64,000 bases of DNA, taken from an uncultured Thermotogae bacterium (GTDB taxonomy: Bacteria > Bipolaricaulota > Bipolaricaulia > UBA7950 > UBA9294). Below the pieces are notes generated by a model, which had not been told where the DNA came from, did not search any database, and saw only the letters and a list, made by a program, of their open reading frames with translations. Shown here piece after piece: positions 46,145 to 57,342 of the stretch. Made by a program: the position numbers and the translations under genes. Location of the stretch: contig CAZKPU010000001.1 in NCBI GenBank assembly GCA_964554715.1, forward strand, positions 5,833 through 69,832, written 5' to 3'. The stretch's first letter is position 1; every line of letters starts with the position of its first letter.

Positions 46145-47449
46145 TCAGCTCAACTCCGGTAGCAACAGCCACGCGAGGATAAACAACACGGCATAACCGA
46201 AGACGTCGGTGATTGTAGTCAGGAAGATCCCCGAAGCGAGCGCAGGATCCTTCCCGAGGGCTCGGACAAGAAGCGGGATCAACGCACCGGCGGCACCGGC
46301 CGCTGTCAGTGTCAGGGTCATCGCTCCGAGCATTGCCACACCGAGAAGGAGATCCCCTTTCCAGATGTAGGTGATCAATCCGACCGTAAGGCCGACAAGC
46401 AATCCGTTGACCATGCCCAGCAGCGCCTCCTTGCCGAGCAAGCGGAACCCCTTGCCTTGATCGATGTCCCCGAGGGCGATCCCGCGAGTCATGATCGTAA
46501 CCGTCTGCATCCCCGCGCTTCCGCCTTGTCCGGCAACGACCCCCATCAGAACGGCGAGCGCAGCGACCTTGGCGACCATGTCTTCGAACAATCCGACGAC
46601 GATCGCCGCCGCCAACCCGGTCGCCAGCCGGACATACATCCACGGAAGACGCATTCGAAACGAAGATCCCCAACTGGTGTCGACCCCCTCTTCGCGAGGG
46701 ACGGTCGCCAACCCATAGATGTCCTCGGTGGCCTCTTCTCGGATGACGTCGATCACATCGTCGACGGTGATGATCCCGAGAAGCTTCCCGCTCTCCTCAA
46801 CGACGGGCAGCGCAACGAAGTTGTACTTGTCGAACAGACGGGCGACGTCCTCGACGTCGTCGGTGACCGGCACGCTGATCACATCGCGGTCCAGGATCTG
46901 CACGAGCTGCGTACCGGGTGGCGCGAGAGCCATATCCCGCAGTCCGACCACGCCGACGAGAAGGCCTTCCGAATCGGTGATGTAGGCGTAGTAGACGGTT
47001 TCCGCTTCTTCGATCTGACGGCGCAACAGGTCGATTGCCTGTCCGGTTGTCATTTCGAGCGTAAGCGCGACGAACTCCGGCGACATCAACCCGCCGGCCG
47101 AATCGGGAGGATAGGCAAGGAGATTGCTGAGAAGCTCCGCGTCCTCATCGGCGAGGCGTGACAGCAGTTCCTGCTGGGTCTCGGCCGGAAGTTCTTCCAG
47201 GAGATCCACCGCATCATCAGGATCCATCCGCGAGAGGATCTTGATCGCTTCGTCACGATCCAACCGGGCGAGGATCTCCGCCGAGTCCTCGGGTTCCATC
47301 TCGGAAAGCGGCTCCGCTGCCTGCTGCCTGAGGAACAACCGGTGGACGAGTTCAATCGCCTGATCCTCGGAGATTTCCGTCAAGACCGCGGCCACATCTG
47401 CAGGGCGCTTCGACAGCAAGTCCCGCAAGATCACCCGTTGCTGCTCCAT
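46145..47449 (-). CDS. mgtE: magnesium transporter MgtE
   Basis: N-domain, CBS pair and TM domain are collinear with MgtE. The true start is MEQQRVIL at ATG 47449 (GGAGG SD); the 905-aa track ORF is an antisense-of-ggt artefact. Confidence 0.85.
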   Translation of the reverse strand: MEQQRVILRDLLSKRPADVAAVLTEISEDQAIELVHRLFLRQQAAEPLSEMEPEDSAEILARLDRDEAIKILSRMDPDDAVDLLEELPAETQQELLSRLADEDAELLSNLLAYPPDSAGGLMSPEFVALTLEMTTGQAIDLLRRQIEEAETVYYAYITDSEGLLVGVVGLRDMALAPPGTQLVQILDRDVISVPVTDDVEDVARLFDKYNFVALPVVEESGKLLGIITVDDVIDVIREEATEDIYGLATVPREEGVDTSWGSSFRMRLPWMYVRLATGLAAAIVVGLFEDMVAKVAALAVLMGVVAGQGGSAGMQTVTIMTRGIALGDIDQGKGFRLLGKEALLGMVNGLLVGLTVGLITYIWKGDLLLGVAMLGAMTLTLTAAGAAGALIPLLVRALGKDPALASGIFLTTITDVFGYAVLFILAWLLLPELS

Positions 47450-47479
47450 CGTGTGTCCTCCATCGATTGAAACGCGACC

Positions 47480-47485
47480 GGGATT
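47480..47485 (-). promoter_or_regulatory. perfect -10 hexamer TATAAT 30 nt upstream of mgtE
   Basis: The -35 is weak; the predicted 5' UTR is only ~24 nt. Confidence 0.25.
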
Positions 47486-47596
47486 ATACTTCGAGGAGCC
47501 GACGGATGTCCGGCGGAATATCGGACACGGGGAGCGGGATCGGCTCCGGTGTCGAGCCGAACGGCGTCGCGATGACCCAGCGAAAGAGGTGCTCGC

Positions 47597-49252
47597 GTGC
47601 AACAAACGAACGGACTGTCGGAGGATGCAAGATCGGAAAGCGGCCGGCGTTCGGCTGTCTTCGCGCCGCATGCGGTGGCTGCAACCAGCCAGCCGTTGGC
47701 GACGGCGGCGGCCGTTGAGATCATGAGGCGGGGCGGGACCGCCATCGACGCCGCGATCTGCGCCAACGCCGTTCTGGCTGTTGTCGAGCCGATGAGCTGC
47801 GGGATCGGCGGCGACCTGTTTGCGATCGTCTGGGAGGCGGACACGGCTCGTCTCTACGGCTTCAACGGAAGCGGTCGAGCCCCCGGCGGCCTGACCCGCG
47901 AGCTGTTTTCCGAACGCGGGATGCAACGGATCCCCGAGCAGGGTCCGCTGTCGTGGAGCGTTCCAGGGTGTGTGGACGGATGGGTTTCGCTTCATGAGCG
48001 GTTCGGACGTCTGGACATGACTGCGCTGCTGGCTCCGGCGATCGGATACGCACGCGGTGGATTCCCGGTTTCGCCGGTGATCGGCCAGGCGTGGAACGCG
48101 TCGGCGGAGATGCTCTGCGCAGACGACGGTGCGGCAAGAACCTTCCTCCCGGAAGGCCGAGCGCCCCGTGTCGGCGAGCTGTTCCGCAACCCTGCATTGG
48201 CCGAGGTGTTGGAGCGGATCGCCGCTGACGGCCGCAACGGCTTCTATGGAGGACGGACCGCAACTCAAATCGATGCGTACGCCCGATCGATCGGAGCCGT
48301 CCTGCGGGGAGACGACCTTGCCGAACACCGGTCCGACTGGGTCGATCCGGTCTCGGTCGAATACAGGGGGCATCGGGTGTGGGAGCTTCCGCCGAACACA
48401 CAGGGGATCGCCGTGCTGGAAATGCTGCAGGTCCTGAGCGGTTTCGACTTGCAGTCGCTGGAGCACAACACGGATGCGTACGTGCACGTGCTCACCGAGG
48501 CAAAGAAGCTTGCGTATGAGGACCGGGCCCGCTTCTACGCCGACATGGAGGCTGCGGATGTTCCCATCAAACGATTGTTGTCTTCGGAGTACGCGCAGCA
48601 GCAGCGCAAGCGGATCGATCCCGATCGTGCGGCGACGGAGTATCCGACCGTCGGGGCATCGTCGTTTGCGGCCGACACGGTGTACCTGTCGGTCGTTGAT
48701 GAGGAAGGAAATGCAGTCTCTCTGATCCAGAGTATCTTTCACCCGTTCGGCTCCGGGAACGTCCCCGCCGAACTGGGGTTCGCACTGCAGAACAGAGGTT
48801 GCCTCTTCTCCCTTGACGAAACCCACGCCAACCGGCTCGAACCGCGGAAGCGACCGTTTCACACGATTATTCCCGGTTTTGTCACCCGTGGGGGGAGACC
48901 CGTCTTCTGCTTCGGTGTGATGGGCGGAGACATGCAGCCGCAGGGTCAGGTTCAGGTTCTTCTCAACCTGCTAGAGTTCGGAATGGATCCGCAACAAGCG
49001 GGCGATGCACTCCGGTTTCGCCACGAGGGCTCATCAACACCGGTCGGAGATCGGATGCAAGACGGAGGAGAGGTGCTTCTCGAACCCGGATTCCCCAACA
49101 GCGTCATCCACGGACTCGAACGCCGGGGACATCGCGTTCGCGTGCAAACAGGAGGGTATGGCGGTTATCAGGGGATCTGGATCGATCCGAACACGGCCGT
49201 TCGAATCGGGGGATCGGAACCGCGCAAGGACGGCTGTGCGGTTGGGTACTAG
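47597..49252 (+). CDS. ggt: gamma-glutamyltranspeptidase-family protein (no signal peptide)
   Basis: GGT family with the catalytic Thr region (…LEPRKRPFHTIIP…). GTG start with an AAAGAGGTG SD. Confidence 0.8.
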   Translation: MQQTNGLSEDARSESGRRSAVFAPHAVAATSQPLATAAAVEIMRRGGTAIDAAICANAVLAVVEPMSCGIGGDLFAIVWEADTARLYGFNGSGRAPGGLTRELFSERGMQRIPEQGPLSWSVPGCVDGWVSLHERFGRLDMTALLAPAIGYARGGFPVSPVIGQAWNASAEMLCADDGAARTFLPEGRAPRVGELFRNPALAEVLERIAADGRNGFYGGRTATQIDAYARSIGAVLRGDDLAEHRSDWVDPVSVEYRGHRVWELPPNTQGIAVLEMLQVLSGFDLQSLEHNTDAYVHVLTEAKKLAYEDRARFYADMEAADVPIKRLLSSEYAQQQRKRIDPDRAATEYPTVGASSFAADTVYLSVVDEEGNAVSLIQSIFHPFGSGNVPAELGFALQNRGCLFSLDETHANRLEPRKRPFHTIIPGFVTRGGRPVFCFGVMGGDMQPQGQVQVLLNLLEFGMDPQQAGDALRFRHEGSSTPVGDRMQDGGEVLLEPGFPNSVIHGLERRGHRVRVQTGGYGGYQGIWIDPNTAVRIGGSEPRKDGCAVGY

Positions 49253-53134: not shown

Positions 53135-53241
53135 CACTCCACATTGCTGTCCTTCTCGCATATCACAAGTGACGGCGAACCATCTCCGAGCGCCCGAGGA
53201 ACCGGCGTTTGACTTCCGAACGATCCGTTGCTAGACTTCGT

Positions 53242-53268
53242 TTAGCAGTTAAGGTATGAGACTGCTAA
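53242..53268 (+). promoter_or_regulatory. CIRCE-like HrcA operator TTAGCAGTT-N9-GACTGCTAA
   Basis: Compare the consensus TTAGCACTC-N9-GAGTGCTAA. It lies 14 nt upstream of the clp start codon; the spurious track start ATG 53256 falls inside its spacer. Confidence 0.55.
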
Positions 53269-53282
53269 CCAAGGAGATAGTC

Positions 53283-55505
53283 ATGATTCGCTTTGATAAG
53301 ATGACGCAGGGCGCACAGGAGCTTTTTCGCGAATCCCAGGATCTTCTCACGCGGTATAAGCACAATCAGCTCGATGTCGAGCACTTGGTCAGTGTTCTTG
53401 CCGGCAAAGAAGGAACCGGGCGCGAGATTCTGCAGGCGATGGGGGTTCATGTCGACGGTTTGGTGAAGGATCTTGACTTCCTGCTTCGCCGCAAACCAAC
53501 GGTCTCCGGCCCGACCGGCGGACAGATCTACATCACCCCCCGCCTCGAATCCGTCGTCACGGGGGCACAGATGGAGGCGGACCGCCTGCGGGACGAGTTC
53601 ATCGGGGTGGATCACCTGCTGCTGGCGATCAGCCGGGTGATCGAGCCTGAGTTCAAGCGGGTCCTCGATAAGCATCACATCACCCCCGAGGCGATCTACG
53701 CCGGACTGAAAGAGGTGCGCGGCGAGCAGCGGGTGACGGATCAGGACGCCGAAGATCGGTACCAGGTGTTGAAGAAGTACTCCAGCAACCTCACGGAGAT
53801 GGCTCAGCGCGGAGATCTCGATCCGGTGATCGGGCGCGATGAGGAAATCCACAGGATGCAGCAGATTCTCTCCCGGCGCCGCAAGAACAACCCGGTCTTG
53901 ATCGGGGAGCCCGGCGTGGGAAAGACGGCCGTGGTGGAAGGACTCGCTCAACGGATCGCTGACGGTGAGGTGCCGGAGGGGCTCAAGAACAAGGAGATCA
54001 TCTCCTTGGACATCGGGGCGATGGTTGCCGGTTCGAAATTCCGTGGCGAGTTCGAGGATCGGTTGAAGGCGGTCATCAAAGAGATCGAAGCGACGGCCGG
54101 CCAGTCGATCGTGTTCATCGACGAGGTCCACACCATTGTTGGTGCAGGGGCCGCGGAAGGTGCGATCGATGCATCGAACATGCTCAAAGAACCGCTTTCC
54201 CGGGGAAGGTTCCAATTGATCGGAGCGACAACGCTGGATGAGTACCGGGAGCATGTGGAGAAGGACTCCGCTTTGGAGCGCCGGTTCCAGAAGATCTTCG
54301 TTGACGAACCGACGATCGAGGAAACGGTGGCGATCTTGAATGGACTCCGGAGTACCCTTGAGGAACACCATGGGGTCAAGATCACCGACGACGCTCTTGT
54401 GGCGGCCGCCAAGCTGTCGGAGCGGTACATCTCGGATCGGTTCCTGCCCGACAAAGCGATCGATCTGATCGATGAGGCGGGCAGCCGCATCCGTGTCGAT
54501 GCCAGCGGAGAAGAGGTCACCGAGGCGCAGATCGCAGCGTTGGTCTCTCAATGGACGGGGATTCCGGCTGAACGGATGATCGAAGAGGAACGAGCGCGGC
54601 TGGCACAGATGGAGGACATCCTCCACGAGCGTGTGATCAACCAGGTGGAGGGGGTCCGCGCTGTATCCCAGGCGGTCCGCCACTCCCGTGCCGGTCTTTC
54701 GGATCCGCGCCGGCCGATCGGAACGTTTCTCTTCCTCGGCCCAACCGGCGTGGGGAAGACCGAACTCGCCAAGGCGCTGGCGTCGTTTCTGTTTGGCTCC
54801 GACGACGCGCTATTGCGGATCGACATGAGCGAGTACATGGAGCGCCACGCCGTATCGCGGCTGATCGGATCGCCCCCCGGGTATGTCGGGTATGAGGAAG
54901 GTGGCCAGCTCACCGAATCGGTCCGGCGTCGGCCGTATCAGGTTGTGCTTTTCGATGAGGCGGAAAAAGCCCATCCTCAGGTGATGAACCTGATGCTCCA
55001 ACTGCTTGACGAGGGGCGGCTCACGGACGGGCACGGGCGGACGGTGGATTTCAAGCACACGATCCTCATCCTCACATCCAACGTCGGCAGCGAGCGGTTC
55101 GAATCGGATGCGGCCTGGGAATCGATCGAGGAACAGGTGCGAGAAGATCTCAAGGGCGCGTTCCGGCCGGAGTTTCTGAACCGGATCGACGAGACGATCG
55201 TTTTCCACCGCCTCGAACAAGATGCAATTGCCCAGATCGTGGATCTGAAGATCGGCGCGCTCAACGAGCGGCTTGCCGAACAAGGGATCGCTCTCTTGTT
55301 GACGCAGAGCGCTCGAACGGCGCTTTCTCGGAAGGGGTTCGATCCGCACTACGGAGCGCGGCCGCTGGAGCGCGCGATCAAGCGGTTGATCGAGAACCCT
55401 CTTGCCGAGAAGATCGTAGCCGGAGAGATCGCAGAGGGAGATCACGTATCGGTCGATGCTGCGGCAATGTCCGACACGCTCCTCATCAGGAAAGCTTCGT
55501 CTTGA
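53283..55505 (+). CDS. Clp/Hsp100 AAA+ ATPase with ClpB-like N-domain and two NBDs but no M-domain and no ClpP-docking tripeptide
   Basis: Walker A GEPGVGKT / GPTGVGKT. The NBD1-NBD2 linker (…[33 protein letters not shown]…) is ~10 aa where ClpB has ~120. No IGF/L loop. Start ATG 53283 after AAGGAG. Confidence 0.7.
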
Positions 55506-55548: not shown

Positions 55549-57162
55549 CTAGCTGGGCGGCTCGTAGCGGCTGACCTGAGGGGCCATGATGACGCGGGCG
55601 ACGTCCCAAACCTGATGGATGTCGCCTTCCTCCAGCCCCCATGGGTCCACCCCCAGCGGCAACGTTGAGCCGTCGACTGCCGTCTCCGCCAGTGCATAGA
55701 TCCGGCCCTCGATCACCCACAGACCGCCGGATTCAAACCCTTGCCGGGTGAGGCGGGCAGCAAAATCCTCACCCACGGGGACGAAGACCACCATGTGGTT
55801 GGCAACACCCGAGCCGCTCGTATCGACACCGGCAATCACCGCTCCGTGCCCGAGGGTGCGCAGCAAGCTGGCGTAAAGGATGGAAGAGTCTTCGCAATCC
55901 CCGATGCGTTCAACCAGCGTCTCCACGGGGTAGCGAGGGTACTCGACGCCGCTTGGATCAGGTGCATACGCAACGACGCTCTGCACGAACGCTAGGGCGT
56001 TGTCGGCGATATCGTAGTAGGCGGTGCTGTCTACGCTTGCCGTCAGCAACGCTGCAAGTTCGGCCATTAGCGGATCGTCGAGCGGGTCGAGAACGTACCG
56101 GTCATAGGTTCCGTAGACGGCGACGCATCTGGATCGCGATGAGTACTCCTCGATCAGCGACACGGGGATCGAGAGCGACACCGAGCTTCGCCGGCCGTCG
56201 AACCACCAGCTGTATCCGTAGGAGGCGGTTTCTCCGTGTTCGGTCGAGGGAGGATCTTGTCCATCGTCTGTGGGTTGAGTGACAAGGATCTCCGTCTCGC
56301 GCGAGGCGACCGATCCCGATGCGTCCGCGACGATCAGCCGTACGGTGAACTGCCCGGGTGCCAAATAACGGTGTGTCACGATCGATCCTTCGGTTGAATC
56401 GCCGTCCCCGAACGTCCACACGTAGTGGACGACCCTCCCCGTAGCGGATGTCGATGCGGTTCCGTCGAACGTCACCGCTTCTCCAAGCGCTAGAGACGCA
56501 GCCGATGCGGAAATGCGAGCGACAACGGCCCCGTCCTGAGCCTCCGCCTCGCCCTGCACGGACAGTGTTGTCGTTGCCGAGGACGTGGCTCCGTCCTCGT
56601 CGGTGACGACAAGTGTGACGGTGTAGTCTCCCGCGAGTTGGTACCTGTGGGATGCCGACGTTCCTTGCCCTTCCGAACCGTCTCCGAACGACCAGCGGCA
56701 GCCGATGATCCCTCTGTCGTCGGTGGACGCCGAGGCGGAGAACTCGACGTCCTGTCCGACCGATGCCGGATTGGGCGTAGCGGAGATCCTTGCCACGGGA
56801 GGAGTGTTCGGAGGATCGACCTCAACGGTGAGTTCGGTCTGGGAAAGCTGCCCGTGATCGTCGGTCACGGCGAGCGTTACCGTGTGCTGTCCGGCGCCGA
56901 CGAAGGTGTGCTCGGGAGACTCTCCCGTCACGGACTGGCCGTCGTCGAACCACCAGGTGTAGTCGACGATGATGCCGTCGGGATCATAAGAGGGCGAAGC
57001 ATCGAAGGTGACGACCAGCGGTGCGCGGCCGGTGGCCGGCGACACGGAGGCGCCCGGTACGGGAGGCTGATTGCGAAAGAACGTACATCCGGAAAGCAGG
57101 AGCGCCCCCAGCGTTACGAGCGTCAACAACAGCCCTGTGGCACGGGATAAGGGCCCAGACAT
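55549..57162 (-). CDS. lipoprotein with four PKD repeats and a C-terminal transglutaminase-like cysteine-peptidase-like domain
   Basis: Lipobox LLSGC; four repeats of the WxFGDG…HxY pattern; C-terminal GDCEDSSILYASLLRTLG / NHMVVFV motifs. The track ORF is over-extended to 57327. Confidence 0.6.
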   Translation of the reverse strand: MSGPLSRATGLLLTLVTLGALLLSGCTFFRNQPPVPGASVSPATGRAPLVVTFDASPSYDPDGIIVDYTWWFDDGQSVTGESPEHTFVGAGQHTVTLAVTDDHGQLSQTELTVEVDPPNTPPVARISATPNPASVGQDVEFSASASTDDRGIIGCRWSFGDGSEGQGTSASHRYQLAGDYTVTLVVTDEDGATSSATTTLSVQGEAEAQDGAVVARISASAASLALGEAVTFDGTASTSATGRVVHYVWTFGDGDSTEGSIVTHRYLAPGQFTVRLIVADASGSVASRETEILVTQPTDDGQDPPSTEHGETASYGYSWWFDGRRSSVSLSIPVSLIEEYSSRSRCVAVYGTYDRYVLDPLDDPLMAELAALLTASVDSTAYYDIADNALAFVQSVVAYAPDPSGVEYPRYPVETLVERIGDCEDSSILYASLLRTLGHGAVIAGVDTSGSGVANHMVVFVPVGEDFAARLTRQGFESGGLWVIEGRIYALAETAVDGSTLPLGVDPWGLEEGDIHQVWDVARVIMAPQVSRYEPPS

Positions 57163-57342
57163 GACGGCTTGATCAGCGGGATCTGTACGATTCGGCACAA
57201 CCGTTTCCTCTCTTTCCGAGTTGATCATCGCACGGCGGCTGAGCAAGCGTGGGAAGCGATGCGACAGAGGCGTGAGACATGCGCCAAGAACGAACGAGTC
57301 AGATGTCGGCCCGGTGGCCCGGGACATCGCGGCCGGCTGCGC

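Follow-up and report, generated by a model that had tools for sequence, protein, structure and literature searches.

In the current view of the Hsp100 proteins, the middle domain (M-domain), a coiled coil, is the switch that keeps these potentially harmful unfoldases inactive until they are called on by Hsp70 or an adaptor, and an IGL/F loop decides whether a substrate is degraded or refolded. Here we describe an Hsp100 gene that carries neither element. It lies in a stretch of 64,000 nucleotides (nt) of contig CAZKPU010000001.1 (assembly GCA_964554715.1), from an uncultured bacterium that GTDB places in the Bipolaricaulota, and we refer to this whole stretch as the window. The gene encodes a protein of 740 amino acids (aa) and sits behind an inverted repeat of the CIRCE type (controlling inverted repeat of chaperone expression), the presumed site of the repressor HrcA. 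We favor, with a probability of about 0.6, the reading that the product works alone as an ATP-driven unfoldase or disaggregase and lets go of its substrates, that it derives from a ClpC-type gene, and that it is restrained by HrcA through the CIRCE operator.

Several described systems come close to this. Hsp70 uses its nucleotide-binding domain to dock on M-domain motif 2, and the motor is held in repression by M-domains (PMC4428496). In ClpC the M-domains build an inactive resting state and their deletion gives full, adaptor-independent activity; de-repressed point mutants of the ClpC M-domain are toxic, and the toxicity depends on ClpP (PMC5699869). The IGL/F motif is essential for cooperation with ClpP, and ClpB, ClpG and ClpL are without it, all three keeping the M-domain (PMC11006417). 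As for regulation, clpB and lon are under HrcA/CIRCE control in Mollicutes (PMC5138195). The parts are thus known separately: CIRCE ahead of an Hsp100 gene, an Hsp100 with no M-domain (ClpA), and Hsp100s with no ClpP loop (ClpB, ClpL, ClpG and ClpV). In the literature that we searched for natural Hsp100s without an M-domain, we came upon ClpA, NSF and engineered deletions, and we found no ClpB/ClpC-type protein without both the M-domain and the ClpP loop. What appears to be new is a ClpB/ClpC-type Hsp100 that lacks both, which no studied family member that we found matches.

The 740-aa protein and its missing parts

The mechanically called open reading frame (ORF) is 749 aa long and starts at ATG 53256, inside the spacer of the operator. 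We rejected this start because the ATG is within the operator and the homologues favor 53283. The homologues are 734–754 aa long and cover 99–100% of the 740-aa reading, so we take 53283 as the start. The downstream gene is convergent, and the 740-aa gene is therefore monocistronic.

Pfam recognizes Clp_N, AAA, AAA_lid_9, AAA_2 and ClpB_D2-small in the protein, which agrees with the N-domain and two AAA+ modules proposed in an earlier reading made from the letters and their translations (the sequence-only reading). Across the two rings, the Walker A and B motifs, the arginine fingers, sensor-2 and both aromatic pore loops (KFRG in ring 1, GYVGY in ring 2) have been preserved, and all are invariant in the family alignments. 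By its motifs, the product is a class-I Hsp100 that has kept the ATPase and pore-loop motifs in both rings.

The absence of the M-domain was seen both in alignments and in a structure model. When the protein is aligned to ClpB of T. thermophilus (1qvr), residues 4–413 map to 3–404 and residues 411–727 map to 520–840, which leaves about 115 ClpB residues (405–519, the M-domain) without a counterpart; measured between the motifs LPDKAID and TGIP, the spacer is 30 aa in the 740-aa protein vs. about 150 in ClpB. We also modeled the protein with AlphaFold2. A first model from a shallow alignment had a predicted local distance difference test score (pLDDT) of 67, and we replaced it with a model from a 97-sequence alignment that has a mean pLDDT of 87. 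In this model a helix (388–406) is followed by a loop of 7 residues and another helix (414–425), with no coiled coil. The best structural matches of the model in Foldseek were ClpC, in first place, and ClpB. The sequence-only reading had estimated a link of about 10 residues between the two rings with no M-domain; the ClpB alignment and the model give about 7.

That reading had also seen no IGF or IGL tripeptide. A search for [ILVMF]G[FLMI] found none in the entire protein, and the same is true of the 120 best clusters of homologues described below. Alignments with ClpB, ClpC and a family of longer sister proteins (also described below) turned up no cryptic M-domain or ClpP loop.

The protein does not fall into any of the curated families. 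It misses every curated NCBIfam equivalog cut-off, including those of TIGR03346 for ClpB (score 1046, cut-off 1232), NF008118 (885, cut-off 1417), TIGR02639 for ClpA (767, cut-off 993) and the models for ClpK (733, cut-off 1900), ClpG (714, cut-off 1900) and ClpV (713, cut-off 885). When the rings are scored alone, ring 1 gets about 370 bits with ClpB, 345 with ClpC and 282 with ClpA, and ring 2 gets about 425, 391 and 268 bits in the same order.

The operator and its conservation

The inverted repeat consists of a left arm TTAGCAGTT (53242–53250), a spacer AAGGTATGA (53251–53259) and a right arm GACTGCTAA (53260–53268). Its arms are complementary at 8/9 positions and the spacer is exactly 9 nt, just as the sequence-only reading had described it. 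That reading had also put the repeat 14 nt before the real start codon, and the ribosome-binding site AAGGAG together with the homologue lengths agrees with ATG 53283. Compared with canonical CIRCE, TTAGCACTC-N9-GAGTGCTAA, the window site has 15/18 arm positions equal and 3 mismatches, two of which are symmetric, with C>G at left-arm position 7 and its mirror image, G>C, in the right arm. Compared with the consensus of its own clade, TTAGCAGTC-N9-GACTGCTAA, it has 17/18 arm positions equal and a single mismatch. At up to 3 mismatches on both strands this is the only CIRCE-like match in the 64-kb window, where shuffled sequences give 0.01; no other CIRCE copy was found there.

A consensus scan found a promoter-like sequence just upstream (Table 1). 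The operator begins 4 nt past the -10 hexamer and ends 14 nt ahead of the ATG, between the -10 hexamer and the Shine-Dalgarno sequence, so it should occupy the position where transcription is expected to start. We considered whether the repeat could instead be the terminator of the upstream TauE gene and rejected this, as it has no T-run and is 108 nt downstream of TauE.

To follow the operator in relatives, we used 12 related loci fetched with their flanks: 8 that encode short proteins (L001–L004, L009 and L208–L210), which are 76–90% identical to the window protein, and 4 that encode the longer sister proteins (L018 and L205–L207). Together with the window these come to 278 kb in total. At up to 4 mismatches, each of the 13 loci has exactly one CIRCE-like site, and it is always in the same position. 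The layout is also the same, with a TTGAC...TAnAnT promoter at an unchanged distance, then the operator, then the start codon 10–20 nt further on, and in most of the related loci there is a purine-rich GGAG, GGGG or GAGG ahead of the ATG. The intergenic DNA around the operator is poorly conserved among these loci, and the synonymous sites of the gene are saturated (dS, the synonymous divergence, is 1.3–2.0). In L209 toxin-antitoxin genes replace the upstream neighbors and the promoter and operator are still attached to the clp gene. By these comparisons the operator is kept beyond neutral expectation in orthologous promoters, and its persistence where divergence is saturated speaks for a function in the general heat-shock response.

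The symmetric G/C variant is not peculiar to this clade. A scan for TTAGCAGT-N11-ACTGCTAA with one genome per species gave at least 120 loci from many phyla. On each side of every listed site, we chose the longest ORF that began no more than 250 nt away, which gave 163 ORFs, and scanned them with Pfam. Among the matches listed, the ORFs that flank the variant include Cpn10 (GroES; 43 ORFs), HrcA (21, with the identical operator motif), sigma-70-family factors of the RpoH type (13), HSP90 (HtpG; 7), Hsp100 with Clp_N (6), Lon (1) and GroEL (1). Across most of these 120 unrelated genomes the variant stands ahead of groES, hrcA, htpG, lon, clpB or rpoH. One Bipolaricaulota-type locus (L009) is among the listed loci. 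In spot checks, flanking ORFs for RpoH, Lon and HrcA each passed the curated model of their family. Given that the variant is flanked by heat-shock genes and hrcA, we consider it, on these matches, an ordinary and widespread form of CIRCE that is also found ahead of hrcA itself.

These data leave one other way to look at the repeat: it could act only as a stem-loop in the mRNA 5' end that affects stability or translation, or it could be the site of another regulator. The transcript could indeed form a hairpin of 9 bp, with a minimum free energy of -14.1 kcal/mol, and neither the window nor the 278 kb of clade DNA gave a match for hrcA. However, the fold is ordinary for its composition (z = -1.6, with 15/200 shuffles folding equally well or better) and it leaves the Shine-Dalgarno sequence unpaired. 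What is conserved is the arm sequence and the 9-nt spacing, as in CIRCE, and not the pairing through compensatory changes; in addition, the identical motif precedes hrcA in the 21 genomes mentioned above. We believe that this explanation is very unlikely. By these comparisons the repeat has the behavior of a CIRCE operator, with HrcA itself presumed.

There are some observations on the variant that stand apart from the window gene. In Xanthomonadales, TTAGCAGTC-N9-GACTGCTAA ends 1–11 nt before the start of rpoH (L006, L017, L025, L030, L034, L040–L042, L052, L073, L075 and L087), which places an HrcA-type operator directly on the sigma-32 gene; the ORF at L040:3581-4459 passes the RpoH model TIGR02392. 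In L116 the same variant ends 35 nt before rpoH. The variant is also ahead of htpG in Clostridia and Cloacimonetes (L032, L089, L099, L100, L106 and L118), ahead of lon in the candidate-phyla-radiation genomes L036 and L123 (L036 passes TIGR00763), and ahead of a small heat-shock gene of the Hsp18 type in L043, from the same listed matches. An Acidimicrobiaceae locus (L033:259-329) has two CIRCE copies ahead of groEL, 44 nt from start to start.

Table 1. Coordinates of the promoter, operator and protein features, in window positions.
Feature	Coordinates	Strand	Evidence
Sigma-70-type promoter	53209..53237	+	-35 TTGACT 53209-53214, 17-nt spacer, TG-extended -10 TAGACT 53232-53237; consensus scan
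CIRCE-type operator TTAGCAGTT-N9-GACTGCTAA, presumed HrcA site	53242..53268	.	Unique in window; conserved in related loci
Shine-Dalgarno AAGGAG, 6 nt ahead of start codon	53271..53276	+	Read off sequence
Class-I Hsp100 gene, 740 aa (N-D1-D2), without M-domain, without ClpP loop	53283..55505 including stop	+	Pfam, alignments, homologues
Clp N-terminal domain, aa ~1-150	53283..53732	+	Pfam Clp_N in two stretches; model: eight helices, pLDDT 87-95
AAA+ module 1, aa 160-406	53760..54500	+	Walker A GEPGVGKT 53904-53927, Walker B FIDEVH, pore loop KFRG, arginine fingers ERRF
Junction of seven residues (DASGEEV, aa 407-413) where the M-domain would be	54501..54521	+	Alignments to ClpB, ClpC and sister family; loop in model
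End of D1-small, AAA+ module 2, D2-small, aa 414-725	54522..55457	+	Walker A GPTGVGKT, Walker B LFDEAEKA, pore loop GYVGYEEGG, sensor-2 GARPL
TSN-to-FRPEF segment, aa 600-626, place of the ClpP loop in ClpA/ClpC/ClpX	55080..55160	+	26 residues, no IGL/IGF-type tripeptide

Relatives, ancestry and proposed function

The short form of the protein is shared by a whole family. Our homologue set consisted of the best 120 clusters from JGI, ENA, NCBI and Logan, at 76–96% identity, and where these are named they are Candidatus Bipolaricaulota, Acetothermia or Bipolaricaulis. Between LPDKAID and TGIP the spacer measures 30 aa in 119 of them and 31 aa in the other one; the segment in the second ring where the ClpP loop would be is 26 aa in 119, with one that did not parse; and none of the 120 has a ClpP-type tripeptide. 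The ratio of nonsynonymous to synonymous divergence (dN/dS) against six orthologues is 0.04–0.12. Across these clusters the missing M-domain and ClpP loop are a fixed property of the whole family as far as the alignments go. In the databases these proteins are called ClpC, ClpB or "AAA family ATPase". A separate metagenome scan with back-translated generic Hsp100 motifs gave 80 loci with Clp ATPases 40–53% identical to the window protein, and these were not orthologues.

An assembly deletion or a decaying pseudogene would also produce a short protein. The unusual length is all that speaks for it, and we consider it refuted: the same junction occurs in more than 120 clusters from JGI, ENA, NCBI and Logan, dN/dS is low, and the catalytic motifs are invariant.

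The sister family points to where the short form came from. In the operator scan we came across L018, which has an 824-aa protein behind the same operator. At 56% identity to the window protein and with an N-terminus that is nearly the same, this protein has a coiled-coil insertion of about 55 residues at the junction and a 17-residue insertion with KMGF at the position of the ClpP loop. Its relatives are 61–100% identical to it and 802–840 aa long, except for one partial sequence, and where named they are Acetothermia or Fraserbacteria. Beyond this family, the next best matches come from the short Bipolaricaulota proteins and from ClpC of Chloroflexi; Chloroflexi ClpC also has the short M-domain of about 55 aa. 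Sister proteins 812–824 aa long show 55–57% identity, and at the ClpP-loop position the family has 17–21 extra residues (an alignment gap of 15–21 columns) that include K[MIL]GF.

In the alignments there are three states. ClpB has a long M-domain and no ClpP loop, ClpC and the sister family have a short M-domain and an [MIL]GF loop, and the short Bipolaricaulota family has neither. A neighbor-joining tree, which carries no support values, puts the two families as sisters. The sister genes are near the same SecD-YajC-MgtE block, have an M3 peptidase or amidohydrolase gene close by, and carry the same promoter-CIRCE layout. We read the window gene and the sister genes as positional orthologues. 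Because the sister family has a similar neighborhood, the same operator, the M-domain and the loop, the most likely course, judged from the sequences compared here, is that a ClpC-type gene under CIRCE control lost both elements in the lineage of the window. This changes one part of the sequence-only reading, which had measured the missing M-domain against that of ClpB. The absence stands, but by ancestry it would be a ClpC-type protein that lost a short M-domain, and not a ClpB that lost 120 aa.

There are other clusters with the same look. Among the best 150 representatives at 50% identity, a dozen or more further clusters combine a spacer of at most 46 aa with the absence of a ClpP tripeptide, and they are scattered in the tree. 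The M-domain was therefore lost on several occasions, in settings that differ from one another. P0174 is present on ten contigs with no CIRCE, and P0134 also has no CIRCE. P0157 (L214:397-6963) is a 747-aa Hsp100 without M-domain and ClpP loop that lies between a DUF4280 (PAAR-like) gene and genes for an IcmF-related protein and IglE; it is a type VI secretion ATPase stripped down in the same way, of different origin and with no CIRCE. Among the cases examined (P0174, P0134 and P0157), the combination of the stripped architecture with CIRCE is specific to the Bipolaricaulota clade by this comparison. A cluster of another kind, P0121 (877 aa), is a full-length ClpB type with a 150-aa M-domain spacer and an insertion "QPMGFGAPG" at the ClpP-loop position, and it may be a ClpB that docks ClpP.

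These clusters bear on a further explanation for the window gene, namely that its product is a specialized remodeling ATPase for one complex under stress, similar to ClpV or NSF, and that the ancestral heat-shock promoter was merely kept. That Hsp100s with neither element arose several times, in P0157 inside a type VI secretion cluster and in P0174 and P0134 with no CIRCE, fits with this, as does NSF, which has no M-domain and uses N-domain adaptors. On the other hand, the window gene is monocistronic, and its neighbors in the clade are unrelated housekeeping genes (TauE, HD, M3 peptidase and the PKD protein) that vary while the operator stays. The conservation of CIRCE over saturated divergence favors a general heat-shock role, and we consider a dedicated remodeler unlikely.

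For the preferred reading of a stand-alone unfoldase, the proposed sequence of events is as follows. HrcA would bind the operator and keep the gene off until heat or unfolded-protein stress. Such stress would titrate GroEL, which would leave HrcA inactive and turn the gene on. The hexamer would then thread substrates alone and release them for refolding. With no docking loop it would have no way to hand substrates over to ClpP. With no M-domain it would be neither recruited nor activated by DnaK and would have no resting state of the M-domain kind, so that control would have moved from the protein (repression by the M-domain, and adaptors) to transcription. From the missing docking elements it is sound to infer that the protein would be neither dependent on DnaK nor a partner of ClpP.

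The partners themselves are available in the phylum. A closed genome encodes ClpP, DnaK, DnaJ and GroEL, and it also lists hsp20 and a gene named "clpB" (supplement of PMC6092417), so the docking elements would have been lost despite available partners. This can be turned around, and the protein might still work with ClpP or DnaK through a non-canonical contact or an adaptor on the N-domain. Beyond the presence of ClpP, DnaK and DnaJ, conservation between the protein's N-domain and that of the ClpC-like sister family is good, and one report describes ClpC-type N-domains as docking sites for adaptors (PMC12583610). However, the IGL/F loop is essential for ClpP cooperation (PMC11006417) and the protein has no such tripeptide, the M-domain motif 2 on which Hsp70 docks is absent, and both losses are fixed in 120/120 of the best clusters, which is hard to square with partners that were kept. 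We consider a retained partnership distinctly unlikely.

Several points weigh against the stand-alone, HrcA-restrained unfoldase. The characterized stand-alone disaggregases (ClpG and ClpL) all keep the M-domain and use special N-domains (PMC11006417); autonomous targeting of aggregates by an ordinary Clp_N is therefore unproven. The repressor is also an assumption for this lineage. We found no hrcA, groES or dnaK by motif in the window or the 12 clade loci (278 kb), and locally built hidden Markov models (HMMs; from 14 HrcA and 38 GroES sequences) had no match in the same DNA. The literature and supplements on Bipolaricaulota and Acetothermia genomes that could be searched had no mention of HrcA. 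Finally, the window operator is 3 mismatches from canonical CIRCE, although it is 1 from the clade consensus.

A broader claim can be made, and we offer it as possible but doubtful: that the Bipolaricaulota ClpC-type gene became an autonomous, constitutively de-repressed unfoldase or disaggregase with HrcA repression as its only brake, and that it belongs, with the other clusters that have no M-domain and no loop, to an overlooked class of stand-alone N-D1-D2 Hsp100s. If this were true, the "delta-M" Hsp100, familiar as a hyperactive laboratory construct, would have come about repeatedly in nature. The regulatory half, CIRCE ahead of an Hsp100 gene, is conventional, and the function is inferred. 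Nevertheless, a family with neither element, found phylum-wide under strong purifying selection, with a ClpC-like ancestor and the ancestral operator, would amount to a natural experiment. It raises the questions of what activity a bare N-D1-D2 motor has, how the toxicity of such a motor is avoided, and whether transcriptional control can replace post-translational control. It is also a case where annotation pipelines name the proteins without noticing that parts are missing.

Neighboring genes and known systems

Two other genes of the window were noted. On the minus strand at 46145-48862, the mechanically called MgtE ORF runs to 905 aa vs. 430–434 aa for its orthologues, and its Pfam domains do not begin before residue 486. 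This puts the real start some 470 codons further in; the ORF's upstream half probably covers a hypothetical gene of 171–194 aa that is conserved in the related loci. The convergent neighbor at 55549-57327, also on the minus strand, encodes a protein of 592 aa with three PKD domains and a C-terminal part that has no Pfam match. The PKD protein is present in the closest relative, L001, and in more distant relatives other genes are in its place. In L209, the insertion upstream of the clp gene (L209:6369-9433) is a block of toxin-antitoxin and DUF4062/DUF8058 genes between the TauE-asparaginase genes and the clp gene.

Among known regulatory systems, the HrcA/CIRCE regulon (groESL and hrcA-grpE-dnaK, with clpB and lon in Mollicutes) is the one to compare. 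The window operator shares its 9-bp arms, its 9-nt spacer and the position after the -10 hexamer, and an Hsp100 gene as a target has a precedent (PMC5138195). It differs in that arms of the window type carry the symmetric G/C variant TTAGCAGTC/GACTGCTAA.

Among the Hsp100s, the closest relatives are ClpC-like proteins. ClpC, which is found in Firmicutes, Actinobacteria, Chloroflexi and cyanobacteria, shares Clp_N and the two AAA+ modules with the 740-aa protein. However, ClpC has a coiled-coil M-domain of about 55 aa, which is used for the resting state and for binding MecA, and a ClpP loop of the form [LVIM]GF, and the 740-aa protein is without both. ClpB/Hsp104 gives the top scores for both rings with HMMs and with PDB sequences, also has no ClpP loop, and is also a heat-shock gene. 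Its M-domain of about 120 aa docks DnaK and represses the motor, whereas the 740-aa protein has 7 residues in that place.

ClpA also does without an M-domain, and the 740-aa protein aligns with it in one colinear stretch. In contrast to the 740-aa protein, ClpA has an IGL loop and works with ClpP, and the similarity to it is far lower. We tried the idea of a ClpA orthologue and rejected it, because the similarity was the lowest of the candidates, the score was below the cut-off, and there is no IGL loop.

The stand-alone disaggregases ClpG/ClpK and ClpL are alike in having no IGL/F motif, and they work without Hsp70 and give protection from heat (PMC11006417); they serve as the model for the reading that we favor. 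They differ from the 740-aa protein in that they keep a coiled-coil M-domain and have specialized N-domains that bind aggregates, whereas the 740-aa protein has no M-domain and an ordinary Clp_N. The engineered ClpC-deltaM carries the same deletion and has constitutive, adaptor-independent activity in vitro (PMC5699869). However, ClpC-deltaM and the point mutants still dock ClpP and the toxicity of the mutants depends on ClpP, whereas in the natural protein the ClpP loop is gone as well.

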